29,051 bases of DNA from a virus (Duplodnaviria > Heunggongvirae > Uroviricota > Caudoviricetes): IMG/VR virus record IMGVR_UViG_2547132278_000023. One strand, given 5' to 3'. Each line of letters begins with the position of its first letter. Position 1 is the first letter of the stretch. The position numbers were made by a program, and so were the translations under genes. The notes beneath the pieces are model-generated. The model did not search any database. It saw nothing but the letters and a program-made list of their open reading frames with translations, and had not been told where the DNA came from. Shown piece by piece: positions 1 to 17,811 of this stretch.

Positions 1-1284
1 TTACAGACTTCTGGAAGGTTGCACAGCTCTTACAACACGCGGTTGATCTTCCGCAGCGTCTTCCAGCGCACTTAAATCACGGTCTTTCACTTCTGGCATT
101 TTCAGCGCAGAGATTAAACCAATCACTGAATATGCCATGATCATAATGGCGATCGGATACCAGGATTCCGTCATGGTGCAGAAAATACCCGCCAGGATAG
201 GACCAAAACCGGAAGCGATAAGACCACCAATTTCTTTAGAAATGGCCATCCGGGTAAAGCGGTTTTTACAGCCGAACATTTCTGCCATGGTAATGTTTTC
301 CAGAGCAAATAATCCCAGCACCGCACAGTTATGAATCACAATCAGTGCAACCATAATGGTGCTCGGGGCATAGCTTTTATCTACAATGATAGAAAGCATT
401 GGCCATGCCAGCACAATCGCGGAGGTATTCATAATAATATACGGGATCCGGCGACCAATTTTATCGGATAACCAACCAAGGAACGGAATGGTCATAAAGC
501 CGAGAATCGAACTAATCATCAATGCATCTGTTGGAATTGCTTTGTTAAACAATAACGTCTGCACTAAATAGCCTGCAAGGAAAGTCTGAATTAACCCGGA
601 GTTACCCGCCTGACCAAAACGCAGCCCTGTTGCCAGCCAGAAGGATTTGCTCTGGAACATGCTACCAGCAGGTGCAGGTTTTGCTGTGGGTTGGTTGCTG
701 TCATTAACCTTCTCAAAGACCGGGCTTTCTTTCAGATTCATACGTAACCAGATAGCAAAGACCATCACGACAACGCTCGCCAGGAACGGTATACGCCATC
801 CCCACGCCAGCAGTTCCTCTTTACTGAGAATGAAGAACATAAAGGCCCAGATTGCCGTTGCGCTCAAGGTTCCGCAGTTAGTTCCCATAGCTACAAATGA
901 GGAGATAATTCCGCGCTTACCTTTTGGTGCATATTCCGCCAGCATCGTACCGGCACCGGAAATTTCCGCACCTGCACCCAACCCCTGAATAATACGCAGC
1001 GTCACCAGCAAGATGGGGGCAAAAACACCAATCTGTGCATAGGTCGGTAACACACCAATTAAGGTGGTACAGATCCCCATCATGGTGATGGTAATAAAGA
1101 GCACTTTTTTACGCCCTATTCTGTCGCCCATTTTGCCGAAAATAAATGCTCCGACAATACGCGCCACATAACCTGCACCGTAGGTTCCCATTGCCAAAAT
1201 TAACGCCATTGCCGTTGATGATTCAGGAAAAAATATTTCATGAAACACTAACGCTGCGCCGAGCGAATATAACTGGAAATCCAT
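1..1284 (-). CDS. ydfJ: MFS (metabolite:H+ symporter family) transporter YdfJ, missing about 30 N-terminal residues including part of TM1; truncated by prophage integration
   Basis: 427-aa ORF with multiple hydrophobic helices and an MFS loop motif (GKMGDRIGRKK). Stop codon at 1-3. The N-terminus begins inside what should be TM1 when compared with ProP/KgtP-type transporters. Confidence 0.8.
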   Translation of the reverse strand: MDFQLYSLGAALVFHEIFFPESSTAMALILAMGTYGAGYVARIVGAFIFGKMGDRIGRKKVLFITITMMGICTTLIGVLPTYAQIGVFAPILLVTLRIIQGLGAGAEISGAGTMLAEYAPKGKRGIISSFVAMGTNCGTLSATAIWAFMFFILSKEELLAWGWRIPFLASVVVMVFAIWLRMNLKESPVFEKVNDSNQPTAKPAPAGSMFQSKSFWLATGLRFGQAGNSGLIQTFLAGYLVQTLLFNKAIPTDALMISSILGFMTIPFLGWLSDKIGRRIPYIIMNTSAIVLAWPMLSIIVDKSYAPSTIMVALIVIHNCAVLGLFALENITMAEMFGCKNRFTRMAISKEIGGLIASGFGPILAGIFCTMTESWYPIAIMIMAYSVIGLISALKMPEVKDRDLSALEDAAEDQPRVVRAVQPSRSL

Positions 1285-1503
1285 AATTCATAGATATTTT
1301 TTACCATCCTATGGATTTTTGGGCGTTTTCTAAGTTTTTTCAGATGGTTGTATTTTTTCTAAAAACTCCTGATCTCGATTTTGCTGTTTGTCTGAGACCT
1401 TTTTATGTCCCATATATGCCCCAAGGTGCCCCATGTAAATCCAATTCAACTCAAAGCATCCCTGTTCAATATTTTTACAAGGGGCTTGCATATCAGTGTT
1501 TTT
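1285..1503. other. Prophage/host junction (att) region between truncated ydfJ and the last phage gene
   Basis: AT-rich 219-bp non-coding gap between the ydfJ ORF start and the tail-fiber chaperone stop. Exact att core not determinable without the other prophage end. Confidence 0.4.
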
Positions 1504-2070
1504 TTATTGCGTAACGTCAAACGCTCGGATTGAGCGTAAATCATCAAGATTATTCAGCTCTTCCTTCATCTCCCGCTGACGACGATAAATCTCGTCATTG
1601 CGATCGGCCTGTGCCCGTGCCATTACTGCCGCAAGTTCTTCCAGTTCCTGCATCGTCAGGAGGATTGGCGTATTCTCTCCATCTCCCCAAACAATTGTTT
1701 CTCTGCCAGCTCCTGATTTCGCCGCCATTACCACTGGTAAGAGGCGGGACAGCGAAACCGGACCAGCATTCCATTTGTGACCTTTCCATTCCAGCATGAA
1801 CGACATGGACTCCTGTTCCTGACGCCATACTTCGATCTCACACACTTTAGCCTCTTTTTCTGCGGCAATAAGTTCAGGCGTAACGGTAAACCGGGCTATT
1901 CCGCCCCACTTCCCGCTTTGCAGTTCCTGCCAGACCTGTTTACCCATTTCCGCAACATCATTCTCAACAGCGGTATAAGGTAGATGTACCTCCTGCCCCT
2001 CCAAAAGCACTTCACAATATACAGCACCATCCTCCAGAAACATGGCATTTCTTATATTTTTTATCTGCAT
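1504..2070 (-). CDS. Putative tail fiber assembly/chaperone protein (not lambda Tfa type)
   Basis: 188-aa ORF starting 7 nt downstream of the stf stop on the same strand, the position of tfa in lambdoid phages. Sequence does not resemble lambda Tfa as I recall it; the DUF4376-like assignment is tentative. Confidence 0.5.
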   Translation of the reverse strand: MQIKNIRNAMFLEDGAVYCEVLLEGQEVHLPYTAVENDVAEMGKQVWQELQSGKWGGIARFTVTPELIAAEKEAKVCEIEVWRQEQESMSFMLEWKGHKWNAGPVSLSRLLPVVMAAKSGAGRETIVWGDGENTPILLTMQELEELAAVMARAQADRNDEIYRRQREMKEELNNLDDLRSIRAFDVTQ

Positions 2071-2076
2071 ACTCTG

Positions 2077-4035
2077 TCACCCGACCCGCACAAATAATCC
2101 TATATACGCTTCCTTTCCGTTGGTGGTATAAAGACCATCTCCCCCCAGAGACTGATACACTCCGGGAAATGCCGATGTATTCGTTCTGCCAATGACAAAC
2201 GTTGCCTCCCCTTTCATTGTGCCTGCTCCTGTCACGCCTCCCACTACTATTTCCACCGGCGCAAGTGCTTTTCCCGGGCATGGTTGTCCACGACTCAGGC
2301 GCATTAAAACTCCACCTTCCGCTACTCCCAAAAAAGCTGCCATAACCACACTGCCGATATCCGGTTTCGGCGAACTGATACTTCTTAAAAATTCATCCTT
2401 TGATAATTTGCTCTGAGCCTCATCCATTACCACTTTGACCGCTTTTGGGGTTGCCGCCAGTGACTCGGAAGTGCTGTTTGTCGCACTACTGAGTTGTACT
2501 ATCCCTTTCTGTGCTGTCGTTGCATTCTGTGCGGTGTATTTCCCGTTAGCCAGGTCATACGCGGCCTTAACTGCTTTTGGCGTTGCCGCCAGTGACTCGG
2601 AAGTACTGTTTGTCGCACTGCTGAGTTGTACTATCCCCTTTTTCGTCGTGCTCGCATCCTCAAGCGCCACGGCGTATGCAATATCCTCTGCCCGTTTTGC
2701 TGCTGTCTCGGCGCGCGTTGCTGCGGATTCTGCCGTACTCTTGCTCTGTGCTGCCGCCGTCGCACTACCAGCTGCCTCGGTCGCTTTCGTGGATGCCGTC
2801 GTGGCACTTCCCTTCGCTGCTGACGCCTGTTTAGTCGCCTCATCTTTTGAAGCAGACGCAGATGATGCCGATGACGCCGCCGAACTGGCGGACGATGCGG
2901 CAGCCGTTTTTGAGGATTCTGCGCTGGTTTCCGACGCTTTCGCGTTCGTTTCGGATGTCTTCGCTGCGGAAGCAGACCTCGCTGCTGCGCTGGCCTGTTC
3001 AGCGGCTTCGCCAGCCTTCGTTGTGGCTGTTGAAGCAGACGATGCGGCACTTTCTGCCGATTTTCCGGCGGCGGTGGCACTGGCTGAGGCCTGCCCGGCA
3101 CTTGTTGACGCGGCACTGGCAGACGACGCAGCCGCTGTTTTTGAGCCTGCCGCAGCTGAGGCGCTCTGTCCCGCTGCCGTCTCAGAAGACTTAGCGTTCG
3201 TCTCGGACGTTTTTGCCGCCTTCGCGGAATTTCCTGCCGCCGTTGCCGAGGAAGCGGCACTACTGGCGCTCGAGGATGCGTTCGTTTCTGATGATTTCGC
3301 TGCCTCTTTTGAGGCCGCCGCATCCCGGGCTGAGGTGGCAGCTTCTGAGGCTTTCGTAGTCGCGGTGGATGCAGAAGTGGCTGCTGATTGTTGTGACGCT
3401 GCGGCATTCGTTTCTGACGTTTTCGCCGCACCGGCACTGGTGGCCGCCGCGCTTTTTGAGGACTCTGCAGCGGCAGCACTTTTTGATGCCTCAGAGGCTT
3501 TTGCTGATGCCGTTCCCGCGCTGGAAAAAGCCTCCTGAGCCGACGTCGCGGCCTGTCCGGCTGACGTGCTGGCGGCACGAGCTGAGCCTGCAGCATCAGT
3601 CGCATGGGTTGCCGCCTCACGGGCTGATGTGCTGGCATCGCTGGCTGACTTCTTCGCGGCTGCCGTGTTCTGTGCCACCGCGGACGCGTTACGCGCCACC
3701 TCTTCCACCATCAGTTCAAAACGGCGCAGTGCCTCAGGACGGGCATCATCCTCCGTCATGGCACCGAGAAAATCATTCAGCGTACCGGGTCGGGAATCTT
3801 CATACACGGTGATGGTCCCGGCATGTGACGGCGGGAATCCCTCCACCAACAGAATAACGCTGTACTGCCCGTACTCAACGTCCATGCTGTAACGCCCGGC
3901 TTCATCCGGATTTTCTGAGGCCAGCGTGTTCACCACCACCGTGGTGCTGTTACGTTTTGCTTTCAGCTGGATTGTGCAGTTCTGTACCGGTTTTCCTGTG
4001 CCGTCTTTCAGTACACCTGAAATCTTTACTGCCAT
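2077..4035 (-). CDS. stf: Side tail fiber protein Stf: lambda-like N-terminal and Ala/Ser/Thr-rich shaft, divergent C-terminal tip
   Basis: N-terminus MAVKISGVLKDGTGKPVQNCTIQLKA... and the A/S/T-rich repeats match lambda Stf as recalled. The conserved fiber motif KGIVQLSSATNSTSESLAATPKAVK occurs twice. Track ORF starts 2 codons upstream (MNMAVK), so start is 4035 or 4041. Confidence 0.85.
   Translation of the reverse strand: MAVKISGVLKDGTGKPVQNCTIQLKAKRNSTTVVVNTLASENPDEAGRYSMDVEYGQYSVILLVEGFPPSHAGTITVYEDSRPGTLNDFLGAMTEDDARPEALRRFELMVEEVARNASAVAQNTAAAKKSASDASTSAREAATHATDAAGSARAASTSAGQAATSAQEAFSSAGTASAKASEASKSAAAAESSKSAAATSAGAAKTSETNAAASQQSAATSASTATTKASEAATSARDAAASKEAAKSSETNASSSASSAASSATAAGNSAKAAKTSETNAKSSETAAGQSASAAAGSKTAAASSASAASTSAGQASASATAAGKSAESAASSASTATTKAGEAAEQASAAARSASAAKTSETNAKASETSAESSKTAAASSASSAASSASSASASKDEATKQASAAKGSATTASTKATEAAGSATAAAQSKSTAESAATRAETAAKRAEDIAYAVALEDASTTKKGIVQLSSATNSTSESLAATPKAVKAAYDLANGKYTAQNATTAQKGIVQLSSATNSTSESLAATPKAVKVVMDEAQSKLSKDEFLRSISSPKPDIGSVVMAAFLGVAEGGVLMRLSRGQPCPGKALAPVEIVVGGVTGAGTMKGEATFVIGRTNTSAFPGVYQSLGGDGLYTTNGKEAYIGLFVRVG
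2430..2645. repeat. Two near-identical direct repeats of about 75 bp, separated by about 60 bp, inside stf
   Basis: The repeat encodes the duplicated KGIVQLSSATNSTSESLAATPKAVK motif and shows on the antisense frame as the repeated peptide TAFGVAASDSEVLFVALLSCTIPF. Coordinates approximate. Confidence 0.5.
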
Positions 4036-4099
4036 ATTCACCCCACAAAAAAGCCCTCCTGAACCGGCGGGCTGTCATAACACTGTGTTACCTGGCTAA

Positions 4100-4699
4100 T
4101 CAGAATTTATAACCGACACCCACAATGAAACCGTCAGTGCGCCAGTCACCACTGCCGGAGCCTTCATAAGCAATATCAATGGCCACGGATTCGGTCGGGT
4201 TAAACTGCACGCCAGCCCCCCACGCCAGAGACGTGTTGCTGTGGCGACCGTCATCACTTCCGGTCAGCACATCATGCGTTTTCCCCGTATTGTCGGTCAC
4301 CTGCAGATAATCCCCGGAGAAAGTCGACACACGGCTGTAAGCCACACCCGCCATCGCATACGCGCTGAACCATTCATTCACGCGCACAGACGGTCCCGCC
4401 ATCACGCTGAACCAGCGGTTACGCACGGAATCCTCATGCCAGCGGGTATCGCTGTAATGCGTTTTTTGCTCATCTTCAGCGTTGGCATAACTGAATGACG
4501 TAATCAGCCCCAGCGTGTCCGTAAACTCATAACGGTATTTCACGTTAATCCCGTTCAGATTATCGCTGCCGGGAGCGTTCGTACGGGCATGAAGATACCC
4601 TGCGCTCAGTGTGGCCTGCTGCTCAGACGCCCATGCAGGCGCACCGGATACGGCCAGACAGATGGCTGCGGACAAAATGGCTGCATAAACTTTACGCAT
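4100..4699 (-). CDS. lom: Outer membrane protein Lom (Ail/Lom family beta-barrel)
   Basis: 199 aa with signal peptide MRKVYAAILSAAICLAVSGAPAWA and C-terminus ...AYEGSGSGDWRTDGFIVGVGYKF identical in character to lambda Lom. Sits directly after J as in lambda. Confidence 0.9.
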   Translation of the reverse strand: MRKVYAAILSAAICLAVSGAPAWASEQQATLSAGYLHARTNAPGSDNLNGINVKYRYEFTDTLGLITSFSYANAEDEQKTHYSDTRWHEDSVRNRWFSVMAGPSVRVNEWFSAYAMAGVAYSRVSTFSGDYLQVTDNTGKTHDVLTGSDDGRHSNTSLAWGAGVQFNPTESVAIDIAYEGSGSGDWRTDGFIVGVGYKF

Positions 4700-4720
4700 A
4701 ATTACCTCTCGCTTTTCTGC

Positions 4721-4748
4721 AATAAAAAAGGCGCCATTTCTGGCGCCC
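4721..4748 (-). terminator. Rho-independent terminator-like hairpin downstream of the original J stop (tJ-like)
   Basis: Palindrome ggcgcc-atttct-ggcgcc followed on the minus strand by a run of T (aaaaaa on plus), between the original J stop and the lom RBS. Confidence 0.45.
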
Positions 4749-4780
4749 GTATTGGGGTTATAAAATTCAGCTGATACTGA

Positions 4781-4788
4781 TGCCTGCG
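4781..4788. repeat. 8-bp target site duplication (TGCCTGCG), left copy
   Basis: Identical octamer immediately flanks both ends of the IS66-family element (second copy at 7488-7495). Confidence 0.6.
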
Positions 4789-4818
4789 GTAAGCGACTCG
4801 TCAGAACCGTATTGATAT

Positions 4819-6390
4819 TTACTGAGAGCTCAGATCAACTTTCCAGGGCAACAGATCGCGTACCCGGTTTGCCGGCCAGTCCTGGATATGTTCAATGACG
4901 TAACGCAGCCACTTTTCTGGCTCCACATTGTTCAGACGGCATGTGCCGATCAGCGAGTACAACACCGCCGCATGTTCACCACCGCTGTCGGAACCCGCGA
5001 ACATCCAGTTTTTCCGGCCTACGGCCACTCCCCGTAAGGCGTTCTCTGCGATGTTGTTGTCGATTTCCACCCAGCCATTACTGCAGTACACGTTCAGTGC
5101 ATCCCACTGTTTCAGCAGGTATGCGAACGCTTTTGCCGTATCTGAGTGACGCGACAGTGTTTTCATCTGTTGCTGTATCCAGTCATACAGTGACTGCATC
5201 AGTGGCGCGGCTCTGGCTTTTCTTGCCGCCAGACGCTGTTCTGCTGAACAGCCCCGGACCTCTGCCTCGATGGCATACAGTTCACCGATACGCTGCAGGG
5301 CTTCCGTGGTGATGTAGGTGGGCGCTCTTGCATGCACATCGTGGATTTTTCTCCGGGCATGAGCCATACACGCGGCTTCCGTTATTCTGCCGGATTCGTA
5401 TAACGCCCGGTAACCACCGTAAGCATCGGCCTGAAGCACACCGCTGTAACCGGCCAGGTGATTTTGTGGATGGATACCTTTCCGGTCCGGACTGTACGCG
5501 AACCAGACCGCCGGGGGCATCTGTGAACCGGCGTTACGGTCATCACGGACGTAGACCCACAGCCGGGCTGTCCGGGTTTTACCGCTGCCCGGCTCCTGGA
5601 CCGGGACGGGGATATCATCAGCATGGACTTTACCGGGCATCAGCACATACTGGCGCAGGACGTCATACAGCGGCTCCAGCAGTTCAGCAACAGCACCTGT
5701 CCAGCGCCCCAGTGTGGCACGGCTCAGCTCCACTCCCTGACGACGGTATATTTCTGACTGGCGGTATAACGGCAGATGGTCTGCATATTTCCCGGTGACA
5801 ACATGGGCCAGAAGCCCCGCTCCGGCATAACTGCGTGCAATGGGTTTTGAAGGTACTGGTGCCTGCACGATATGGTCGCACCGGCAACAGGCCTGTTTCG
5901 GACGTTGTGTTTCGATAACCTTAAAGGCGCTGCTGATAAGCTCCAGTTGCTCTGACACATCACATCCCAGAGAACTGAGTTCACCACCACAGGCAGGACA
6001 GCATTCCTCTTCCGGCCGGATAACCCGGGTTTCACGGGGAAGTGAGGCCGGTAACGGTTTACGGGCTGAAGACTGGCGCAGGGCGGATGGCAGTACCGGG
6101 TCATATTGCTCACCCAGCGTTTCCGCCATTTCTTCCTGAAGTGCGCTGATTCGCTCCTGTGCTTCCTGTATCTGCCGTTCGGTTTTTGCACGAAGTTTTT
6201 CTGAGCTTTTACCGAACTGCATACGTTGCAGTTTCGCAACCAGCGCCTTCAGCCGGTTGATTTCGGAAGCATAAGCCGCCACCCGCTGTGAGAGCAGGCG
6301 GTTGTATTCAGCCATCTGGCGGATGGTGTCCTGTTGCGTCTGCAACAGTGCCCGCAGGCGGGCGTTCTCATGAGCAAGTGAGGTGTCCAT
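4819..6390 (-). CDS. tnpC: IS66-family transposase TnpC
   Basis: 523 aa with a leucine-zipper-like N-terminus, CxxC...CxxC zinc-finger region and DDE core typical of IS66 transposases. Confidence 0.9.
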
Positions 6391-6409
6391 ATCCTCACTT
6401 TACAACGGG

Positions 6410-6757
6410 TTATATGCGGATTCCAGCGCGTTCCGTTCGTTTCGGGTGCTTCCAGTTGATACCTTCAAGAAGCATGGATAACTGAGCCGGAGTAAGGTGC
6501 ACCTTGCCGTCACGGGTGACTGGCCAGACGAAGCGGCCCCGCTCCAGGCGTTTGGTGAAGAGGCACAGTCCGTCACTGTCAGCCCACAACACTTTTATCT
6601 GGTCACCCCGGCGTCCGCGGAAGATGAACAGGTGTCCGGAGAACGGGTCATCCTTCAGGACGTTCTGAACTTTTGATGCCAGGCCGTTAAAGCCATTTCG
6701 CATATCGGTGATACCTGCAACCAGCCAGATACGCGAACCTGCAGGGAGAGATATCAT
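6410..6757 (-). CDS. tnpB: IS66-family accessory protein TnpB (orf2)
   Basis: 115-aa ORF between tnpA and tnpC, typical size, sequence and position for IS66 orf2. Confidence 0.85.
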   Translation of the reverse strand: MISLPAGSRIWLVAGITDMRNGFNGLASKVQNVLKDDPFSGHLFIFRGRRGDQIKVLWADSDGLCLFTKRLERGRFVWPVTRDGKVHLTPAQLSMLLEGINWKHPKRTERAGIRI

Positions 6758-7434
6758 CAGTGGCTGCTCCCTTTTATTTCGCGGATAAGTGTCTGTAATA
6801 ACGCCGGCGTCAGTTTACCTTTAAGCCTGAGAGTTCCGGCCGGCAGAACCAGCTCACAACACAGACTGTCGGGCGGTGTATTTATCTGCTCTGGTTCCTG
6901 TGCGGGGGCCGGGATTTTATTATCCGGCTCCGGCGTTAACGTCACGGGAAGCAGTGCCGGCATATTTTTTCCGGAAGGCAGCAGGCCACCTTTCCGGTAT
7001 TGATGGCGCCAGTTGAAGAGCAGGTTATCGTTGATTCCGTTTTCCCGGGCGATCTGCGCCACACAGGCTCCGGGCTGCAGTGACTGCTCCACTAAGGCGA
7101 TTTTAAACTCATAAGGGAAGTTGGGCCGCCGGGGACGTTTTTTTACCACGGGGGCTTCGGATATAACGGTGCTTTCAGGACGTACGACTGGTACCGTGGA
7201 AAATTGTCCGTAAAGGCAGGCATCAAGTTCCTGCTCCGACATGCCTGCGGGCAAAGGCCACGAAAGGCCAGCTCTCCGAAAGCGCACGAACATACTACAA
7301 ACAGTTGATTTTGGTACACCCAGGCGACGCCCGGCCACAACCCGGGGTAAATGTTCTTCAAAGTGAAGACGTAAAGCTTCAGTGATCCAGGTCCGGTGTT
7401 TCATACGATAGTGTCCATTAAAAATGATGGACAT
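6757..7434 (-). CDS. tnpA: IS66-family accessory protein TnpA (orf1); true start probably internal to this ORF
   Basis: Contains the HTH region ...VAQIARENGINDNLLFNWRHQYRKG characteristic of IS66 orf1. Stop overlaps the tnpB start by 1 nt. The 225-aa track ORF is longer than typical orf1. Confidence 0.7.
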   Translation of the reverse strand: MSIIFNGHYRMKHRTWITEALRLHFEEHLPRVVAGRRLGVPKSTVCSMFVRFRRAGLSWPLPAGMSEQELDACLYGQFSTVPVVRPESTVISEAPVVKKRPRRPNFPYEFKIALVEQSLQPGACVAQIARENGINDNLLFNWRHQYRKGGLLPSGKNMPALLPVTLTPEPDNKIPAPAQEPEQINTPPDSLCCELVLPAGTLRLKGKLTPALLQTLIREIKGSSH

Positions 7435-7470
7435 TATTTTTGTAGAGCCGGAGGAAACAGACCAGACGGT

Positions 7471-10400
7471 TTAAATGAGCCGGTTACTGCCTGCGGTGGC
7501 TTTCTTCATCACCACAACCAGCAAATCGCTGATACTTGCTGTGGGATACCAGTCATTTACCAACCATGCTGACACCGAAAACTCCAGTGTCATGTGACCG
7601 TGACCGGCAGGCATATCAATAACACCACTGTAAATCAGCGTATTATCCAGCGCGGTACGGTTATAAATTTCAGCACCGTTTTTCCGTACTATCAGACGGC
7701 ATGAGGAGTAAATATCAGTATGCTCTTTCTCATGTTTAGCGCCGCTGAATGCCACCGCCGGAATAACAATCTGCCGGTCAAACGGCTGATCGTCATAAAC
7801 CCTGACGGTAATGGTTCCTGATGGCCACCGCTCCGGTGCACGGGAGTCCCGGGGGAAAGCTTTGCCCACTGTTTTAACGAGATCGCCTTCAATCTGGTTC
7901 GCGGACAGTTTTCCCAGAACCCGACAGTTCTCGTTAATCGTGACGTTGTTGAGCGTCCCGGAGTTCGCATTCACGTTACCGCTGATATCGGCATTTTTCG
8001 CCGTCAGCCGCCCGTCCGGTGTCAGGGAAAATGCCGGAGGATTACCGCCGCTGGTAATGGTCGGAGCCGTCAGGCGTTTCAGGAACACGTCGTTCATGAA
8101 TATCTGATCGCCCTGACCAACAAACATTGGTCTTGTGTTGCCATTAGACGGATCAATAAACGCGATACGGTTAGCGGCAACCAGGAACTGGCTCAGCTTG
8201 CCTTCTTCCGTGTCCTCCATGCTGAGGCCAATACCCGCGACATAATGTTTGCCGTCTTTGGTCTGCTCAATTTTGACAGCCCACATGGCATTCCACTTAT
8301 CGTTGGCGTCCTTCCACTCTTTCGAAAACTCCTCCAGTCTGCTGGCGTTATCCTCCGTCAGCTCGACTTTTTCCAGCAGCTCCTTGCCGAGATGGGATTC
8401 GGTTATCTTGCCTTTGAAAAAATCCAGGTAACCTTCCGCATCATCGCTCGCCCGACCGACGGCCTCCACGAATGCCGATTTGCCAACGGTGTTCACACTG
8501 CGGATATAAAAGTAATAATCATGGCCCGGTTTGATATTGATACTGGCGGCTATCCAGTACAGCCCCGTGCCAAGGTAGCGGGCTGTGGTTTCAACCTGCC
8601 TGATATCGGTAATCCGCGTTTCCGAGAACCAGAACTCAAACTGCACCGTCGGGTCATATACAGCCAGTTTCGGGACCGCCGTTATCTGAAAATAGCCCGG
8701 TGTCAGCTCAATCCGCGACGGCGCTGCCGGTGCGGCAATCCGGAACGATACCGACGCCGGATCGCCCTGCTGCCCCCACGCATTTACTGCCCGGACTGTC
8801 AGCCTGTAGTTCCCCAGCGCCAGTTGTGTGAAGCGGTAAGTGGTTTCCGTCGTCCGGGCCGTGCTGACCAGCCGCTCACTGCCGTCATCCGCTGCCACGG
8901 TCAGGCGAAGCATAAAGCTCACCCCCTTCACCACCTTCGGCGTGTCCCAGCGCGCCAGCACCTGATATTCCCCGCTGTCTGCGGTGACTTCGGCAGTCAG
9001 GTGCTGCACCGCGGGCGGCGTGACACCATTCACCGTGCCGCTCTGGTCGCCGTCAAAGTGCGCCCCGTTATCCACGATGGCTTCTTTTTCCGGTACATGC
9101 TGCACGGCGGTGATGGCATACGTGCCGTCGTCGTTCTCACGGATACTCACGCAGCGGAACAGGCGCTGGCGCAGCGTCGGCAGCTTCAGCCCCCATACGC
9201 TGTATTCAGCAACGCCGTCAGGAACACGGCTCACTTTCACCTTCACGCCGTCGGTGACGGACTGAACCTCCACGCTGACCGGATTACCACTTCCGTCAAC
9301 CAGGCTTATCAGCGTGGTACCGGAGGATGGCAGCGTGATTTCACGGTCGAGCGTCAGCGTCCGGGTCTGGCTGTTCACCGCCAGCACGCGACCACCGGTG
9401 CTGATACCGGCATAGTCATCATCGCAGATTTCAATGACATCGCCCGGTACATGGCGAAGCCCTTCAGCACCCACGCTGAAATCCACGGTCTGCGTCTCCA
9501 GCAGTTCCGTTTTAATCAGCCACAGCCCGGCGCGGTGTGCCTGCCCCCGGCTGGTACAGCCAAAGGCATCCATCTTCGTGACGTTACGACCGTAACGGGC
9601 AATGGCCTGCGTATCTTCAACAAGCTCTGTCGCCGTCTCCCAGCCGTTATCCGGGTCAATCCAGTTCACCTCAACGGCATTATGGCGGTCTTTCAGGGCG
9701 CTGAAACTGTAGCGGAACGGCGCGCCATCATCCGGCATCACCACATTACTGCGGTTATAGGCCCACACCTTATCCGACGGTCGGTCCTGCACGAACGTCA
9801 GCGTCTGCCCGTTCCATACCGGCATACAGCGCATCGCCGAGCAGAAATCACTGAGCACATCCCACGCTTTGCGCTGTGTGGTCAGGTACGCATTACAGGT
9901 GATGCGCGGCTCCGTGCCGCCAAAGCCGTCCGGCACTGACTGGTCGCAGTACTGGCCGATGACATACAGCGCCCATTTGTCCACATCCGCCGCACCAAGA
10001 CGTTTCCCCATGCCGTAGCGTGGATGGGTCAGCATATCCCACAGACACCAGGCCATGTTATTGCTGTATGCTGGCTTAAACGTTCCGTCCCAGATACCGC
10101 TGTATTGCCGAGTCTGCGGGTTATAGTTCGACGGCACCTGCAGAATACGCCCGCGCAGATGATAATTACGGCTCACCTGCTGGCTGCCGAACTGCTCCGA
10201 ATCCACCTGTACGCCGACCAGTGCCGTGTTCGGGTAGCACTGTTTCACATCGATGATTTCGGTGTATGACGACCAGAGCGTTTTGTTCTGCAGCTGGTCT
10301 GTGGTGCTGTCCGGCGTCATTCTGCGCATCCGGATATTAAACGGGCGCGGCGGCAGGTTATCCACCACCACCGAGGCCAGATACTGCGAGGTGGTTTTGC

Positions 10401-10869
10401 CCTTAATGGTGATGTCTTTTTCCGTCACCCAGCCACCATTACGCTGTATCTGAACCAGCAGGCGAACTTCCGACGGATTCCGGTCCCCCTTTGAGGTGGT
10501 TTCCACCAGTGCCTGCACACCGAAGGTAAAGCGCAGACGGTCGATGTTTGCCGACGTGATGGTCCGGGTAATCGGCGTGTCGTATTTCACTTCCGTACCC
10601 AGTACCGTCTCGGAACCTGATGATTCAAATCCCTCCGGCGGTGTCTGTTCCTGCTCACCTGCCCGGAACACCACCGTGACACCAGAGATGTTAGTATTCC
10701 CCTCACTGTCCAGCACCGGTGTACTGTTCAGCAGCACGCTTTTTAATCCATCCACCGGACCTTCAACCGGCCCTTCGCTGATGGCATCGATCACACTCAG
10801 CAACTGCGTGGACTTCAGGTTGTCCTTTGCTTCGCGCGGGGTATGCCCCTTACTGCTGCCTTTACCCAT
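7471..10869 (-). CDS. J: Tail tip host-specificity protein J (central tail fiber); last 5 codons and stop come from the IS66 end
   Basis: 1132 aa, same length as lambda J, co-linear with the lambda order I-J-lom. The ORF runs 17 nt into the IS, giving ...[11 protein letters not shown] instead of the reconstructed ...KKATAGISIS*. Confidence 0.9.
7488..7495. repeat. 8-bp target site duplication (TGCCTGCG), right copy
   Basis: Same octamer as 4781-4788, abutting the right IS66 terminus. Confidence 0.6.
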
Positions 10870-10890
10870 TCCTCACGCTCCATAAACGAC

Positions 10891-10912
10891 AAAACCGCCC
10901 GGAGGCGGTTTC
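10891..10912 (-). promoter_or_regulatory. Stem-loop in the I-J intergenic region
   Basis: accgcc-cgga-ggcggt hairpin flanked by A/T runs, followed on the minus strand by the RBS gaggaa and the J ATG. Confidence 0.3.
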
Positions 10913-10929
10913 ACATAAAACATTTTGCA

Positions 10930-11571
10930 TCAGCGACCAATCACCACAACCTGACCACCATCCCCTTCGTCTGCCGTGCTGATCTCCTGAGAAACCACAC
11001 GTGACCCCACGCGCATTTCACCGTACAGAACAGGCAGAACATTGCCCTGGGCAACCATGTTATCCAGTGAGGAGAAATAGGTGTTCTGTTTGCCGTTATC
11101 CGTTGTCTGTGTACGGGGAGTTCTGGCTTTCGGTGCCAGCATCTGCGCCACACCACCGAGCACCATACTGGCACCGAGAGAAAACAGCAGATTACTCGCC
11201 ATAATTCCTACCCCCGGCATCCATATAGCAACCGCCATAACAGCCGCCCCCAGCACAGCCTGAAACACACCGCCACTTTTGGCTCCTGCCAGACGCGGCA
11301 CGATATGGATCACGGCACCATTTTCCAGCGGCTCATTAAGACGGGCAGACAATTCGGTTTCACCTGCATCACGCCCGGCAATGCGTACCTGATACCAGCC
11401 GTCGCTCAGCTTCTGACGAAACGCCGGGATCTGCATGGCCAGCGCCCGGATGGCTTCGGCCCCCGTTTTCACACGAAGGTCGATGCGGCGGCCAAATCGT
11501 TGCAAATCCCCGTAAAGGCAGATGCGTGCCATTCCCGGTGACGCCAGAGGGAGTGTGTGCGTCGCTGCCAT
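10930..11571 (-). CDS. I: Tail tip assembly protein I
   Basis: 213 aa; MAATHTLPLASPGMARICLYGDLQRFGRRIDLRVKTG... and C-terminus ...EISTADEGDGGQVVVIGR match lambda I as recalled. Overlaps K by 103 nt, as in lambda. Confidence 0.9.
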   Translation of the reverse strand: MAATHTLPLASPGMARICLYGDLQRFGRRIDLRVKTGAEAIRALAMQIPAFRQKLSDGWYQVRIAGRDAGETELSARLNEPLENGAVIHIVPRLAGAKSGGVFQAVLGAAVMAVAIWMPGVGIMASNLLFSLGASMVLGGVAQMLAPKARTPRTQTTDNGKQNTYFSSLDNMVAQGNVLPVLYGEMRVGSRVVSQEISTADEGDGGQVVVIGR

Positions 11572-12212
11572 TTGTCGGTATACCTCTCTCGTTTACTCAG
11601 TTGTTCAGGAATATGGTGCAGCAGCTCACCGTCGCCGCAGTAAATGGCGGCATGATTCGGCACCGATGAACCAAAGCAGCACAGCAGCACATCGCCAGGC
11701 TGCGCCTCTGTCAGTGGGACACGGTAAAAACCAGTCGCCTCCATATTGTCAAGATAGAGATTCTGACCGTGACGCCACCAGTCATCCCCGCGATAAAAAT
11801 CCGGCATCTCAATCCCCGCCAGATGATAAGCATCCCGGAACAGTGTGTAACAGTCCGTCACACCGTGCTCAAAGCGCCGCCCGGTGAGATGCGGCACACA
11901 GCGGAACTTATGAATCGTCCCCCGGCAGACCAGCCACCACGGCAAATCACTCTGCACCTGCAGCCGCCGGTCGGCCTCACTCAGCCAGGGCAGACCACCG
12001 GGGTGGCTGTGGACCAGCGCCACAATCTCACCCTGCATTTCTGCCTGCAGCCAGTCTTCCGGCGACATACGGAAATACGCCTCCGGCTCACCGGAGATAT
12101 TCGCGCAGGGGAAATATCTTTCCCCCTCCGGCGTTCTCACCACGAAGCCGCACGACTCCGCTGGCGCACATCGCCGGGCGTGCGCCAGAATCGCTGATTC
12201 TGTCTGTGTCAT
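11469..12212 (-). CDS. K: Tail tip assembly protein K (JAB/MPN-like HSHPGG motif in the N-terminal part, NlpC/P60-like C-terminal part)
   Basis: 247-aa ORF starting 5 nt after the L stop. The classical 199-aa lambda K would start at internal Met49 (MSPEDW...). The JAMM-type motif HSHPGGLPWLSEAD sits at residues 68-81, just downstream of that Met. Confidence 0.85.
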   Translation of the reverse strand: MTQTESAILAHARRCAPAESCGFVVRTPEGERYFPCANISGEPEAYFRMSPEDWLQAEMQGEIVALVHSHPGGLPWLSEADRRLQVQSDLPWWLVCRGTIHKFRCVPHLTGRRFEHGVTDCYTLFRDAYHLAGIEMPDFYRGDDWWRHGQNLYLDNMEATGFYRVPLTEAQPGDVLLCCFGSSVPNHAAIYCGDGELLHHIPEQLSKRERYTDKWQRRTHSLWRHREWHASAFTGICNDLAAASTFV

Positions 12213-12217
12213 GGGAT

Positions 12218-12916
12218 TTACTGCGAAAGTTTGTTAATGGAAAGGAAGCCGCCAAAGTTGCCGACGTTATTGCGGAACTTACAACCGCTCAGGCATTTGC
12301 TGCATTTATCCTTCGTGATATCGGACGTTGGCTGGTCATATTCATCCGCGACAGCCGGACCGCTATAACCGCACTCGTCACCGCGATAGGTCCAGGTGCA
12401 GGTGTTGGCCAGCATGATACGTCCCGGAAAAACAGCGCCATCCGTTTCCGTCGGCGTGGACAGTACAAAGGAGGCACTCACCGCGCTCAGTTCGCTGCAC
12501 TGCTCAATGCGCCAGCGGCTGATCACCTCCTGCTCCGGATCGGCATAACTGTTTCCGTTGACGAAGTTCACCGCATCCAGAAAACGGGCGTAAACCTTAC
12601 GCCGGACCACCGTTCCGCCGACCAGACTCTGCATATCTTCCGCCATCCCGGTGACCATACCGTACAGGTTAGAAACCGTCAGCGTGGGGCGCGTACTGGT
12701 GCCTTTGCCATTCAGTTCAAAACCGCTCCCCTGAATGGGATACGGCTGATACTGTCGCCCCTGCCAGGTGACCGGCTCACCTTTTTCGTTCTGCTCATTA
12801 CAGAAAAAATAACGTTCTCCACCGACCTCTGTCAGGTCGATTTCCCAGAGCACCACGCTGGCCGACTGCTCCGCACGGGTGCATTCATTCAGTGTTTCCT
12901 GCCGGATATCCTGCAT
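12218..12916 (-). CDS. L: Tail tip protein L
   Basis: 232 aa, same length and sequence character as lambda L, with Cys-rich C-terminus. Confidence 0.9.
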   Translation of the reverse strand: MQDIRQETLNECTRAEQSASVVLWEIDLTEVGGERYFFCNEQNEKGEPVTWQGRQYQPYPIQGSGFELNGKGTSTRPTLTVSNLYGMVTGMAEDMQSLVGGTVVRRKVYARFLDAVNFVNGNSYADPEQEVISRWRIEQCSELSAVSASFVLSTPTETDGAVFPGRIMLANTCTWTYRGDECGYSGPAVADEYDQPTSDITKDKCSKCLSGCKFRNNVGNFGGFLSINKLSQ

Positions 12917-13245
12917 CAGTTCACCACCTGTTCAAACTCTGCGCTGAACTCAACACGCAGCATACTGACCCGCGACGACCATTTTGCGCAGGTCACCTTT
13001 ATCTGCCGCCACTCATAAGGCGGCGTCCACAGAAAGGATTTCCAGCCCCCGTACTCTTCCAGAAACGACTCCAGTACCGTGGCCTCCTCACGGGGGACAG
13101 AAAGCGTCACGCTGTACGTTTTCAGGTTGGCATTCAGCCCGGCAGGCGCTCGCTGAGAATAGCCATCACCAAAGCGCACCTTTCTTACAGAAGGGACCGA
13201 AGCCACATCCATACCGGGTTTCACTTTCCAGCGGAAGGTCTTCAT
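12916..13245 (-). CDS. M: Tail tip protein M
   Basis: 109 aa, lambda M length, in lambda order between H and L. Start overlaps the H stop. Confidence 0.9.
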   Translation of the reverse strand: MKTFRWKVKPGMDVASVPSVRKVRFGDGYSQRAPAGLNANLKTYSVTLSVPREEATVLESFLEEYGGWKSFLWTPPYEWRQIKVTCAKWSSRVSMLRVEFSAEFEQVVN

Positions 13246-15821
13246 CGTCCACCTCCGGAGAACAGGCCACCATCACGCATCTGTGTCTGAATTTCATCAC
13301 GGGCACCCTTGCGGGCCATGTCATACACCGCCTTCAGAGCAGCCGGACCTATCTGCCCGTTCGTGCCGTCGTTGTTAATCACCACATGGTTATTCTGCTC
13401 AAACGTCCCGGACGCCTGCGACCGGCTGTCTGCCATGCCGCCCGGTGTACCGACATAACCGCCGGTGGCATAGCCGCGCATCAGCCGGTAAAGATTCCCC
13501 ACGCCAATCCGGCTGGTTGCCTCCTTCGTGAAGACAAACTCACCACGGTGAACAATCCCCGCTGGCTCATATTTGCCGCCGGTTCCCGTAAATCCTCCGG
13601 TTGCAAAATGGAATTTCGCCGCAGCGGCCTGAATGGCTGTACCGCCTGACGCGGATGCGCCGCCACCAACAGCTCCGCCAATGGCGCTGCCGATACTCCC
13701 GACAATCCCCACCATTGCCTGCTTAAGCAGAATTTCTGTCATCATGGACAGCACGGAACGGGTGAAGCTGCGCCAGTTCTGCTCACTGCCGGTCAGCATC
13801 GCCGCCATATTCTGTGCAATACCATCAAAGGTCTGCGTGGCTGCACTTTTTACCTGCGACATACTGTCCGTGGCGCTCTCTTCCCACTCACTCCAGCCGG
13901 ACTTCAGGCCTGCCATCCAGTTCCCGCGAAGCTGGTCTTCAGCCGCCCAGGTCTTTTTCTGCTCTGACATGACGTTATTCAGCGCCAGCGGATTATCGCC
14001 ATACTGTTCCTTCAGGCGCTGTTCCGTGGCTTCCCGTTCTGCCTGCCGGTCAGTCAGCCCCCGGCTTTTCGCATCAATGGCGGCCCGTTTTGCCCGTTGC
14101 TGCTGTGCGAATTTATCCGCCTGCTGCGCCAGCGCGTTCAGGCGCTCCTGATACGTAACCTTGTCGCCAAGTGCAGCCAGCTGGCGTTTGTACTCCAGCG
14201 TCTCATCTTTATGCGCCAGCAGGGATTTCTCCTGTGCAGACAGCTGGCGACGTTGCGCCGCCTCCTCCAGTACCGCGAACTGACTCTCCGCCTTCCACAA
14301 ATCCCGGCGCTGCTGGCTGATTTTCTCATTTGCTCCGGCATGCTTCTCCAGCGTCCGGAGTTCTGCCTGAAGCGTCAGCAGGGCAGCATGAGCACTGTCT
14401 TCCTGACGATCGCCCGCAGACACCTTCACGCCGGACTGTTTCGGCTTTTTCAGCGTCGCTTCATAATCCTTTTTCGCCGCCGCCATCAGCGTGTTGTAAT
14501 CCGCCTGCAGGATTTTCCCGTCTTTCAGTGCCTTGTTCAGTTCTTCCTGACGGGCGGTATATTTCTCCAGCGGCGTCTGCAGCCGTTCGTAAGCCTTCTG
14601 CGCCTCTTCGGTATATTTCAGCCGTGATGCCTCAGACTCGGCCCAGTCCTTTGCTGCCATCTCTCTGGCCTTTTCAAGATCGGCCTGCAACGTGGCGGCT
14701 GAAAGTCCAAGTTGCGCATTCGCTCTGTCCTCCCATGCTCCCCGGAGATTGGCACGAAATGCTGAGGTTTTACCGCGCCGGTGGCTCCGGCTCTGATACC
14801 ACTGCCATTTTTTGTCCGCCTCATCAAAAGCCTTTTCTGCTTTCTCCAGCATTCCCTGGGCAGTGTCCGGGCGACCAATATCCAGCACCGAATCCCACAT
14901 GGATTTGAATGCCCGTGCTGTCCTGTCTGCCCAGGTCTCCAGCGTGCCCATGTTCTCTTTCAGGCGGCGGGTCTGGTCATCAAACCCTTTCGTTGCGGCC
15001 TCGTTCGCCGCCTGCAATGCCCCGGCTTCATCTCCGGAACGCTGCAACTGAGCAACATACGCAATCTGCTCCGCCGTCACGTTATGGAACTGACGTGCCA
15101 TCGCTGTCAGTCCCGACGTCGGGTCTGTGGTCAGCTTCCCGAAGGCTTCAGCGACCTTGTCCACCTCCACGCCGGATGCAGAGGAGAAACGCGCCACACT
15201 CTGGCTGATCGCCTCAAACTGCTCACCACCACGCACACCGGCATTCACCAGCGCCGTCAGTGACTCGCTGGTCTGGTTAAACGTCAGCCCTGCCGCCTGC
15301 CCGGCTCTGGACAGGACCAGCATACGATCTGCCGTCAGTCCCGCCTGATTGCCGGAAAGGACCAGCGTTTTGTTGAAATCGGACAGGGTTGAGTTGCCCT
15401 GATACCAGGCATACGCCAGCGCACCGGTCGCCACCGCCAGCGAGGTGGCCCCCACCATCGGCAGGGTGATCGCACCGGCAAGCCCCCTGAACATGGGGAT
15501 CATCCCGCCGAAGGAGTCCTTAACCTGACCCCCCTGTTGCAGCAGGATCAGCCACGGACTTTGCCCGCCTGCAAGCTGCGTGGCCACGTCGGTGAACTGT
15601 GCAGGCAGCATACGCATGGCGGCTTTATACTGTCCGACGGAAATCCCCGCTTTCTGTGCAGCCAGCGCCTGCCGGTTCATTGACTGTTCAACGACTGCCG
15701 CTGTTTTTTTCGCATCACTTTCCGTATCGGAAAAATGACGCCTGACTCTGGCCATCTGCTCGTCAAATCTGGCCGCATCCAGACTCAAATCAACGACCAG
15801 ATCGCCTACCGGTTCAGCCAT
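13242..15821 (-). CDS. H: Tail tape measure protein H
   Basis: 859 aa, long coiled-coil-rich protein with Gly-rich C-terminal region, in lambda position. Lambda H is 853 aa. Confidence 0.9.
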   Translation of the reverse strand: MAEPVGDLVVDLSLDAARFDEQMARVRRHFSDTESDAKKTAAVVEQSMNRQALAAQKAGISVGQYKAAMRMLPAQFTDVATQLAGGQSPWLILLQQGGQVKDSFGGMIPMFRGLAGAITLPMVGATSLAVATGALAYAWYQGNSTLSDFNKTLVLSGNQAGLTADRMLVLSRAGQAAGLTFNQTSESLTALVNAGVRGGEQFEAISQSVARFSSASGVEVDKVAEAFGKLTTDPTSGLTAMARQFHNVTAEQIAYVAQLQRSGDEAGALQAANEAATKGFDDQTRRLKENMGTLETWADRTARAFKSMWDSVLDIGRPDTAQGMLEKAEKAFDEADKKWQWYQSRSHRRGKTSAFRANLRGAWEDRANAQLGLSAATLQADLEKAREMAAKDWAESEASRLKYTEEAQKAYERLQTPLEKYTARQEELNKALKDGKILQADYNTLMAAAKKDYEATLKKPKQSGVKVSAGDRQEDSAHAALLTLQAELRTLEKHAGANEKISQQRRDLWKAESQFAVLEEAAQRRQLSAQEKSLLAHKDETLEYKRQLAALGDKVTYQERLNALAQQADKFAQQQRAKRAAIDAKSRGLTDRQAEREATEQRLKEQYGDNPLALNNVMSEQKKTWAAEDQLRGNWMAGLKSGWSEWEESATDSMSQVKSAATQTFDGIAQNMAAMLTGSEQNWRSFTRSVLSMMTEILLKQAMVGIVGSIGSAIGGAVGGGASASGGTAIQAAAAKFHFATGGFTGTGGKYEPAGIVHRGEFVFTKEATSRIGVGNLYRLMRGYATGGYVGTPGGMADSRSQASGTFEQNNHVVINNDGTNGQIGPAALKAVYDMARKGARDEIQTQMRDGGLFSGGGR

Positions 15822-16248
15822 ACCGGACTCCTCCTGCGATCCCTTCTGATACTGTCATCAGCATTACGTCATCCTCCGTCATGTCCGCCACATCCGGGGA
15901 AGCGGGGATAACTTCATTCCCGTCCGGGCCAAAGCGGACGCCTCCGGCAAGCCCTGCCGCTTTCTGCATCAGCACATCATCTTCAGGCTCTTCGTCAGCC
16001 TCGCGCCGGTTCAGCAGACTGAAATCCAGCGGATGCATATCCGGATCGCTGAAAAACAGGCTGAGTACGGTGTACGTCAGCCCGGAAAAGTGCATATCCA
16101 GCAGAACATCATGAAAATAATGGGTACTGTAAAAGCGGTGCCAGTCGGCATACTCCGTGGATGACATCCCGGCAAGCATGGCGCGCCAGTCGGGTCGCCC
16201 CATCTCACGCGCCAGTTTCAGGGCAAAACTCAGCTCACCGTCGAACAC
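15814..16248 (-). CDS. T: T segment of tail assembly chaperone GT, expressed only as a G-T fusion by -1 ribosomal frameshift
   Basis: 144-aa ORF in the -1 frame relative to G, overlapping the G 3' end. The track's first codon is GTG, immediately after the slippery heptamer. Confidence 0.8.
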   Translation of the reverse strand: MFDGELSFALKLAREMGRPDWRAMLAGMSSTEYADWHRFYSTHYFHDVLLDMHFSGLTYTVLSLFFSDPDMHPLDFSLLNRREADEEPEDDVLMQKAAGLAGGVRFGPDGNEVIPASPDVADMTEDDVMLMTVSEGIAGGVRYG

Positions 16249-16652: not shown

Positions 16653-16667
16653 CGCTGACTCTCCGGA

Positions 16668-17408: not shown

Positions 17409-17415
17409 ATCGTCC

Positions 17416-17811
17416 TCACATTTCATAGGTAATGACATAAGTCAGATCGGCTGAACTCCACAGGCCCGCATCATCGTCGCGCCGGTAGTCATAGCCACTG
17501 GCCACCATACTGGTGATCAAATCTGACAGTGCCGGGACATCGCTCATCACCGGATAAATCCGGGACTCCATCCACGAATCCAGCTCTGAATCCGGCACCT
17601 GAGCAGGCAGGAAAACTTCAATATGCAGCTCCGCCTGCCAGGTATCACTGTCCAGCTCTTCGCCCGTGTATTCAGCGCCGGTGAGATAAACGGCAATTGC
17701 CGGAAAATCCGCCTCATCAAAAACAGCGGGGCGACCATCAAAAAGCGTCGCCCCGGTGTCATGCTTCTCCAGTGCATCCAGTACGGCTGCACGGAGTTCA
17801 GTATGTTTCAT
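17416..17811 (-). CDS. U: Tail terminator protein U
   Basis: Matches lambda U from [22 protein letters not shown]... to ...LTYVITYEM. The track ORF has a 20-codon upstream extension. Confidence 0.9.

Follow-up and report, generated by a model that had tools for sequence, protein, structure and literature searches.

Side tail fibres and their chaperones set the range of strains adsorbed by lambdoid phages and by engineered delivery particles based on lambda, and tail-fibre mosaicism of the kind described here has been known since the early 1990s. The locus examined here raises the question of what sits at the far end of a side tail fibre that begins as lambda's does, i.e., whether the end and its chaperone are diverged forms of lambda's own or a unit of another kind, and, if the latter, where that unit was joined in. 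The locus lies in a window of 29,051 nucleotides (the whole stretch of DNA that was analysed, IMG/VR record IMGVR_UViG_2547132278_000023), whose lambda-like prophage belongs to an ETEC lineage of E. coli and is integrated at ydfJ. We consider it quite probable that the gene is a lambda-type stf carrying a rare non-lambda tip and a DUF4376 chaperone, exchanged together as one cassette, with the tip acting as a knob and the downstream protein as a fibre chaperone. It is otherwise ordinary tail-fibre mosaicism, with exchange boundaries that are unusually clear.

Organisation of the locus

All genes at the locus lie on the minus strand in the ORF list. The features discussed below are, in the direction of transcription:

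4100..4699, minus strand: lom, Ail/Lom outer-membrane protein (Pfam Ail_Lom, E 1e-123)
2077..4041, minus strand: stf, side tail fibre gene (ORF list; identity to lambda orf-401; Pfam phage_tail_N and two PF03406)
3634..4035, minus strand: phage_tail_N (PF08400), tail attachment, aa 3-136 (Pfam E 6.9e-72)
2653..3633, minus strand: Ala/Ser/Thr-rich shaft, aa ~137-463 (direct-repeat families D1, D3 and D4; two overlapping HSPs against orf-401)
2521..2652, minus strand: PF03406 unit 1, 44 aa, aa 464-507 (repeat search, Pfam)
2434..2520, minus strand: PF03406 unit 2, aa 508-536 (repeat search, Pfam; megablast breakpoints at its 3' edge)
2080..2433, minus strand: non-lambda tip, aa 537-654 (without lambda match; phrog_2636 C-terminus; family alignment)
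1504..2070, minus strand: putative DUF4376 tail-fibre chaperone gene, 188 aa (Pfam PF14301; phrog_1141; hhalign to V22 gp27)
1504..1600, minus strand: conserved 3' end of the chaperone gene, C-terminal helix, codons ~157-188 (identity shifts against L003 and CH4793)

The stf ORF runs for 654 aa from a GTG at 4041 to a stop codon at 2077-2079, and its start is probably the ATG at 4035 (MAVKISG..., the lambda equivalent), which would give 652 aa. The chaperone gene starts 6 nt past the stf stop, and both ORFs are intact in the ORF list. As in lambda, lom sits between J (7471-10869) and stf, so that stf follows these two genes where the tail operon ends. The ORFs for head and tail (7471-26169) are of lambda-like size. 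An IS66 element of 2.7 kb lies between J and lom, where it splits lom, stf and the chaperone gene from the tail operon and changes the last residues of J. Sister strains such as 120899 and 602354 lack the insertion. The element may impair expression of the fibre genes lying downstream of it and, since it both separates them from the operon and alters the end of J, the prophage in the window may not make infectious, fibre-bearing particles. A consensus scan of positions 1200-4900 found no promoters, and no NCBIfam model matched any of the three proteins queried.

A lambda-type fibre with a non-lambda end

The first-pass annotation had read the N-terminus and the A/S/T-rich shaft of Stf as lambda-like, and the C-terminal ~115 aa and the 188-aa chaperone as non-lambda, and alignment to the lambda proteins bore out each part of this reading. 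The N-terminus is near-identical to that of lambda Stf, with PF08400 matched over its full length (1-134/134), and over 352 aa N-terminus and shaft together share 80% identity with lambda orf-401. The shaft has a biased composition, contains many imperfect internal repeats and is ~86 aa longer than lambda's because of internal duplication. When the last 118 aa were compared to lambda orf-314 by BLASTP, no significant similarity was found (best E 2.7), and the 188-aa ORF likewise did not match lambda Tfa significantly (E 3.2) and had no Pfam family of the Caudo_TAP type. Lambda Tfa belongs to the Caudo_TAP class of tail fibre assembly proteins, as does the T4 gp38-replacing type.

The PF03406 repeats

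Next to the shaft, a tandem 25-aa motif encoded by ~75-bp direct repeats had been proposed at ~2430-2645. Its core, KGIVQLSSATNSTSESLAATPKAVK, does occur twice: one copy covers aa 468-492 (nt 2566-2640) and the other aa 512-536 (nt 2434-2508), with 25/25 residues identical between the protein copies and 68/75 nucleotides between the DNA copies. In the repeat search, the DNA repeat covers 94 nt (84% identity) at a spacing of 132 nt, which equals a 44-aa unit, and Pfam assigns both units to PF03406, 'Phage tail fibre repeat' (E 3.9e-37), so the duplication is not due to chance. The motif sits outside the compositionally biased shaft.

The duplication is thus real, but it is not special to this gene. 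Lambda has a single copy of the 25-aa motif, followed by the same KAVKVVMDE, and other Stf proteins often have two or three; the duplication is therefore a family trait and no peculiarity of the window's gene. Strain CH4793 has an allele that is nearly identical except for its repeat units, of which there are three against the two found here. This difference shows that the PF03406 repeats do recombine.

The tip and its relatives

The tip is laid out as a short linker helix followed by a C-terminal, beta-rich 'domain B' of ~95 aa (~nt 2080-2376), its structure model has a pLDDT of 74.8, and it is presumed to be the receptor-binding knob. It matches the tail fibre family phrog_2636 at positions 473-567/568 (E 1.6e-14), and every one of its 18 remote relatives is located at the extreme C-terminus of a fibre protein. 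Identity to any relative is ~30-36%, and at the strongly conserved columns of domain B the tip keeps 17/24 and changes 7/24, the changes including DxD to ExG, GSRL to GKAL and ALSG to SLGG. Judged from the family alignment, the tip is no orphan but belongs to a known C-terminal domain family, as a divergent, single-domain member.

In most relatives domain B is preceded by a domain A of ~170 aa (LPG..GFG ... PGRY ... FYG..GD). This domain is absent from the window's gene, in which a linker of ~20 aa connects repeat 2 and domain B. A fibre with domain B but no domain A was also found in P0131, and inspection by eye gives the same layout for the collagen-like fibres of PhiR5_2 and P-EibA; for PhiR5_2, a complete phage genome is on deposit, and the host according to the record is E. 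coli K-12 MG1655.

The tip is rare. It is present in 10 of 5426 complete E. coli genomes, with all copies at least 99.7% identical and 0-1 differences within the tip. One copy lies at another site, in a potB-adjacent prophage with three repeats, and differs at 1 nt in 354. A word-indexed protein search with the tip returned three near-identical partial clusters only, tblastn against 50,697 phage records gave no match, and the tip-family profile had no match among PDB sequences. None was found when the tip was scanned against GTDB species representatives, a scan for which the tip alignment is too variable as a query. In sister strains, PGAP labels stf as a pseudogene 'missing C-terminus'; this flag comes from alignment to longer reference proteins and not from a lesion, and it illustrates how automatic annotation labels such intact mosaic fibres pseudogenes.

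The putative DUF4376 chaperone

The sole Pfam family reported for the 188-aa protein is PF14301 (DUF4376), which scores 50.8 bits over residues 71-175 where the gathering cut-off is 25, and the protein matches phrog_1141 with an E of 9e-75. When the DUF4376 family profile was aligned to V22 gp27, hhalign returned a probability of 92.3% (E 5.4e-7, 153 columns), and hmmsearch with the A2 profile matched V22 ORF27 (E 5.8e-7). The structure model (pLDDT 90.4) is mostly helical, with three N-terminal beta-strands and then long helices. These matches point to a remote homologue of V22 gp27, a proven tail-fibre chaperone, and suggest that the 188-aa protein itself has chaperone activity. In V22, gp27 is needed for a functional gp26 fibre (PMC7289586), and a Campylobacter H-fibre construct was functional only with a co-expressed putative chaperone containing a DUF4376 domain (PMC11464564). 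The fold of DUF4376 chaperones is reportedly like that of the intramolecular chaperone domains of T5 pb1 and K1F endosialidase (PMC10579305).

Boundaries of the exchanged cassette

Where stf is compared with its counterparts in other prophages and phages, homology stops either at 2433/2434 or at 2554, between the repeats. The megablast breakpoint (query 1134/1135, window 2433/2434) falls directly after repeat 2 and gives the 5' boundary of the cassette. The repeats had been proposed as recombination substrates for swapping tips, and both the breaks in homology at the repeats and the third unit of CH4793 agree with this. The 3' boundary lies inside the chaperone gene in two independent comparisons: against L003, a relative at the ydfJ site, chaperone identity is ~60-70% and then at least 85% below ~nt 1640, and against CH4793 identity is near 100% above ~1600 and lower below ~1600. 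The swapped cassette extends from ~nt 1600 to 2433.

Tip divergence correlates with that of the N-terminal part of the chaperone at a Spearman coefficient of 0.66, versus 0.23 for the C-terminal part (6 pairs). In 21 of the 27 related loci examined, which are not independent of one another, the DUF4376 gene comes straight after the end of an ORF with domain B, and this adjacency is seen both in myoviruses (phiP27, Av-05) and in lambdoid prophages.

Stf is a mosaic, in which a lambda-type attachment domain, shaft and two PF03406 repeats carry a short non-lambda tip, the last ~95 aa of which form a small beta-rich knob. The DUF4376 protein, of a chaperone class other than that of Tfa, would aid trimerisation of the fibre, starting at the fibre C-terminus. 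The knob is probably contacted by the beta-sheet part at the chaperone N-terminus, and the helices at the chaperone C-terminus probably hold its trimer together. The tip moves with its chaperone as one cassette (~nt 1600-2433), with the PF03406 repeat DNA as one recombination arm and the conserved 3' end of the chaperone gene as the other.

Alternative explanations

It could be argued that the motif and the mosaic are low-complexity artefacts of Ala/Ser/Thr-rich sequence, the shaft being biased in composition and full of imperfect repeats, and that the C-terminus is merely a fast-diverged lambda Stf/Tfa. We regard this as refuted, with practically no chance of being right, given that the motif is not part of the biased shaft and shows full protein identity between its copies and a strong PF03406 match, and that tip and chaperone match phrog_2636, PF14301 and phrog_1141 with no orf-314 or Tfa signal. 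An unlikely but more serious reading is that of a truncated, decaying fibre, in which recombination between repeat DNA and the distal part of a longer fibre removed domain A, the true receptor-binding domain, and left an in-frame, non-functional stump in a defective prophage. Domain A does precede domain B in most relatives, PGAP calls stf incomplete, seven conserved tip columns are altered, and the element shows decay across its lineage (IS66 in J here, tail genes frameshifted in ETEC-2265, a remnant in strain H3). Nevertheless, stf stays in frame up to its stop just before the chaperone start, the PGAP flag reflects longer references, fibres with domain B only exist elsewhere (P0131 and, by eye, PhiR5_2 and P-EibA), and the same tip is intact in two prophage contexts. 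In addition, with only ~30-36% identity to any relative, the tip did not arise recently by deletion from a known two-domain fibre.

T2-type gp38 and Mu Tfa remain on the fibre tip, and the DUF4376 protein might similarly stay there as a cap or adhesin, adding to or masking receptor binding, which we hold to be improbable. In its favour, a 'transient cap' role was proposed for DUF4376 chaperones in a study of Alteromonas phages (PMC10579305), sources label homologues of the 188-aa protein 'tail fiber protein', and the N-terminal ~140 residues of the chaperone co-vary with the tip, showing a specific interaction surface. However, the mature V22 fibre was fully separated from gp27 on size-exclusion chromatography and still bound cells (PMC7289586), while the 188-aa sequence has no surface-exposed adhesin signature and its model is mostly helical.

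Comparison with known systems

A lambda-type stf with an exchanged tip and chaperone shares with lambda (Ur-lambda) Stf/Tfa the gene order J, lom, stf, assembly gene, the 80% identity in attachment domain and shaft, and a PF03406 motif followed by KAVKVVMDE. It differs in having two PF03406 units where lambda has one, and in that orf-314 (a Gly/His-rich tip) and Tfa (of the Caudo_TAP type) are replaced by the 118-aa tip and the DUF4376 protein. The E. coli and Shigella fibres of the phrog_2636 type (L003, phiP27 L56/L57, Rac-SA53, Av-05 gp76/gp77) have the C-terminal domain and the adjacent chaperone in the same families, and the L003 prophage additionally shares the ydfJ integration site and backbone with the window. 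In contrast, their chaperones are 59-68% and their tips ~30-36% identical to the window's, they carry the extra domain A, and L003 has a lambda-like 'APLDSPAFTGTPT' segment that is absent here.

As in the Alteromonas phage pairs V22 gp26/gp27 and A5 gp8/gp9, the chaperone gene directly follows the fibre gene, the chaperone has three N-terminal beta-strands and then long helices (here in the model), and single-knob and double-knob fibres occur in both systems (PMC7289586, PMC10579305). The knob sequences, however, are unrelated, hosts and phage types are different, and the E. coli pair is known from sequence. The Campylobacter CJIE1 H-fibre and Fletchervirus RBPs also have a DUF4376 protein downstream of the RBP, which the retargeted fibre requires, and in the hybrid chaperone of F341 the N-terminal part is that of the tip donor and the C-terminal part that of another lineage, the same split as at ~nt 1600 here (PMC10877375, PMC11464564). 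Hosts and fibre folds are again different, and the relation consists of a shared Pfam family only.

A more general rule is conceivable, though we hold it only tentatively: the host-range exchange unit of DUF4376 systems would be the knob plus only the knob-specific N-terminal portion of the chaperone gene (two-thirds to four-fifths of its length), with the DNA of the conserved chaperone C-terminal helix as the downstream arm and that of PF03406 as the upstream one. Under such a rule, the window would hold a minimal single-knob variant, recently imported into ETEC, whose ExG, GKAL and SLGG residues specify a receptor unused by other E. coli prophage fibres.

A literature search for the junction peptide 'MDETNR' found none; a junction at MDETNR has presumably been used for engineered lambda Stf chimeras. 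With its 118-aa tip and 188-aa chaperone, the locus offers a compact natural example whose mapped junctions (5', between KAVK and VVMDE; 3', at chaperone codon ~157) could serve as templates in fibre engineering. The class of DUF4376 chaperones, still thinly studied, gains an E. coli case.

Mosaic structure of the tail fibre gene

The first-pass annotation had described a side tail fibre gene (stf) with a lambda-like beginning, a divergent tip, a duplicated motif and a non-lambda chaperone gene, and our searches supported and sharpened this interpretation. The relevant genes are all on the minus strand of the window, and the stf and chaperone ORFs are both intact.

2077-4041, minus strand: stf ORF from the ORF list, 654 aa from a GTG
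aa 468-492 (nt 2566-2640), minus strand: 25-aa motif, copy 1
aa 512-536 (nt 2434-2508), minus strand: 25-aa motif, copy 2
1504-2070, minus strand: putative chaperone ORF, 188 aa, Pfam DUF4376

From the ATG equivalent to that of lambda, at 4035, stf encodes a 652-aa protein beginning MAVKISG. Over 352 aa the ORF product matches lambda orf-401 at 80% identity, and it contains a phage_tail_N domain at aa 3-136 of the 654-aa form (Pfam, E 6.9e-72). Its last 118 aa, here called the tip, showed no similarity to lambda orf-314 by BLASTP. Compared with lambda, a stretch of about 86 aa is duplicated within the shaft (window ~2960-3220, aa ~273-358), including a repeated AAKTSETNA.SSETAA motif. The shaft DNA also has many repeats with 42/126-nt periodicity, so the length of the shaft is variable as well.

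The proposed duplication of a 25-aa motif ahead of the tip was borne out: the two copies are identical in protein and match at 68 of 75 nt, and they belong to two Pfam PF03406 "Phage tail fibre repeat" units (E 3.9e-37). At the DNA level the repeats extend over 94 nt with 84% identity and are spaced by 132 nt, i.e., one 44-aa unit. Lambda itself has one copy of the motif, followed by KAVKVVMDE as in the window Stf, which corrects the first-pass annotation. PhiR68_2 has two copies of the motif, and the prophage of strain CH4793 has at least two.

Boundaries of the exchanged segment

In megablast, similarity to other prophages and phages breaks off either at window 2433/2434, right after the second repeat, or at 2554, between the repeats, which places the 5' boundary of the segment at the repeats. 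A relative at the same ydfJ site (L003) is only ~20-50% identical to the window across the tip and 50-80% identical over most of the chaperone gene, rising to at least 85% below ~nt 1640 and ~100% below 1500. The CH4793 prophage lies next to potB, a different integration site, and offers an independent comparison: it is virtually identical to the window from ~1600 up through stf, with one synonymous difference in the 354 nt of the tip, shares the chaperone up to ~codon 170, and diverges below ~1600, in agreement with L003 on the 3' boundary. The exception is one extra 132-nt repeat unit, so that its 696-aa Stf probably carries three PF03406 units versus two in the window.

These boundaries thus define a transferable cassette at ~nt 1600-2433, made up of the tip and about 157 codons from the start of the chaperone gene. 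Tip and chaperone were exchanged as one unit, flanked by homology in the form of the PF03406 repeat on one side and the conserved chaperone 3' end on the other. Between the chaperones of PhiR5_2 (L009 3501-4082) and P-EibA (L010 2661-3236), identity is 100% beyond window residue 140 and ~59% before it (by eye, full identity begins at about residue 75), and the tips of their collagen-like fibres are 26% identical. This pair is a second example of a breakpoint within a DUF4376 gene. A hybrid chaperone with the same kind of split occurs in Campylobacter phage F341 (PMC10877375).

The putative chaperone

The 188-aa ORF showed no similarity to lambda Tfa by BLASTP, as the first reading had expected, and instead matched Pfam DUF4376 (50.8 bits, cut-off 25) and phrog_1141 (E 9e-75). 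About 1,500 relatives were found in the protein collection, and the great majority of the best matches listed come from E. coli, usually with 62-68% identity. Among phage records, relatives were found in phiP27 and Rac-SA53, followed by Av-05 at 39%; identity to the Eib prophages and the PhiR5/PhiR12 phages is ~32%. A profile of the subfamily also aligned with gp27 of Alteromonas phage V22 over 153 columns (probability 92%, E 5.4e-7). Experiments have shown that gp27 is required for a functional V22 gp26 fibre (PMC7289586), and that a Campylobacter H-fibre construct is active only when its putative chaperone, which has a DUF4376 domain, is co-expressed (PMC11464564). AlphaFold models the 188-aa protein with confidence (pLDDT 90.4): the N-terminus forms three strands and one short helix, and the body that follows is arranged as helix/hairpin/helix/hairpin/long helix.

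The tip and its relatives

No tblastn matches to the tip were found in phage records, and a word-indexed search of 5.8 billion clusters retrieved near-identical partial relatives only. Scanning 1.84 billion representatives exhaustively with HMMER yielded 18 remote relatives at 28-40% identity. The match falls at the very C-terminal end of the target in 17 of these, and those of the 17 that were inspected are fibre proteins; in the 18th (P0138) it is internal. The last 95 positions of phrog_2636 also match the tip (E 1.6e-14). The family alignment has the motifs AAY.G, RG, PGSRL, PG.Y.ALSG and GLF.R; the window tip retains 17 of 24 strongly conserved columns, with DxD changed to ExG, GSRL to GKAL and ALSG to SLGG.

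Most relatives, including the 769-aa fibre of L003, have an extra domain of ~170 aa before this terminal domain (domain B, ~95 aa), and in the window Stf ~20 residues connect the second repeat to it. Precedents for the single-domain arrangement are P0131 and, by eye, the collagen-like fibres of PhiR5_2 and P-EibA. In the monomer model (pLDDT 74.8) a short helix leads into a small, beta-rich domain, and a structural neighbour search with the model gave none that was informative. The locus encodes a lambda-type Stf whose tip is rare, has a single knob and is of the phrog_2636 C-terminal type, along with a putative DUF4376 chaperone. Its kind is already known and the member is new; its value, modest overall, lies in the clean junctions and the under-studied chaperone class.

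HMMs made from the tip and chaperone alignments were used to search all fetched loci. An ORF with domain B ends immediately 5' of a DUF4376 gene in 21 of the 27 loci, which are not mutually independent; the exceptions are V22, which has a different knob, the two collagen-like fibres, whose tips have diverged beyond the reach of the HMM, and remnants of the Shigella type. Across six fibre/chaperone pairs, a small and non-independent sample, tip divergence correlated with that of the N-terminal part of the chaperone (Spearman 0.66) and not with that of the C-terminal part (0.23). Shigella flexneri SFBU1023 and E. coli ECMA0423 (L016-L031) carry seven to nine DUF4376 genes of the same subfamily per genome, most behind truncated fibre ORFs of 100-135 codons with domain B only, a pattern that suggests many decayed lambdoid prophage ends.

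Prevalence and annotation

Of 5426 complete E. coli genomes, 10 carry the tip DNA, with all copies at least 99.7% identical and thus unusable for a selection estimate. No diverged DNA relatives were found among these genomes, and the tip was absent from all GTDB species representatives scanned. It is a rare, recently spread allele with a donor outside the sampled genomes. In sister strains PGAP labels stf a pseudogene ("incomplete; missing C-terminus"), namely in L001 (7093-8736), L011 (CH4793, 2387-4150) and L012 (2593-4236), its features stopping ~100 codons short of the real stop. Since stf has no frameshift or premature stop, the label most likely arose because the reference fibres used in the alignment are longer, and the call looks like an annotation artefact from the non-canonical tip.

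Prophage setting and an IS66 insertion

The window represents the end of a lambda-like E. coli prophage, whose insertion site is ydfJ. Several human ETEC chromosomes (e.g., ETEC-2265, strain 120899) are 100% identical to window 1300-4790, and the annotated ETEC-2265 has the gene order truncated ydfJ, DinI-like remnant, DUF4376 gene, tail fibre gene, lom and J, as do the MB06231 and H3 records. Large minus-strand ORFs across 7471-26169 match the lambda head and tail genes in size, with J alone checked by sequence. In E. coli H3 (L013 4425-5570) the cassette is kept as a remnant: the rest of the tail region is deleted, and truncated lysis genes directly adjoin what is left, the DUF4376 gene and ~240 codons of stf. 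In the window, the DinI-like fragment separates the chaperone gene from truncated ydfJ and marks the extreme end of the prophage; it is listed here with the parts of an IS66-family element.

~1344-1433, plus strand: DinI-like pseudogene fragment, 90 nt, inferred from sister-strain annotation
6757-7434, minus strand: tnpA
6410-6757, minus strand: tnpB
4819-6390, minus strand: tnpC
4783-4790 and 7490-7497: IS66 target duplications, 8 bp, CCTGCGGT

The element (2,699 bp, window 4791-7489) sits between J and lom. It was inserted in the last codons of gpJ, replacing the C-terminus ...KKATAGISIS* with different residues, and it parts lom, stf and the chaperone gene from the tail operon; it may compromise this particular prophage. 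Matches to nine near-identical genomes end by window 4790, where the element starts, and its absence was directly confirmed in ETEC-2265, the sole genome so checked. A strong terminator-like hairpin (window 4729-4748, minus strand; 8 pairs, 6 of them GC, with a T-run) is located between the end of J and lom.
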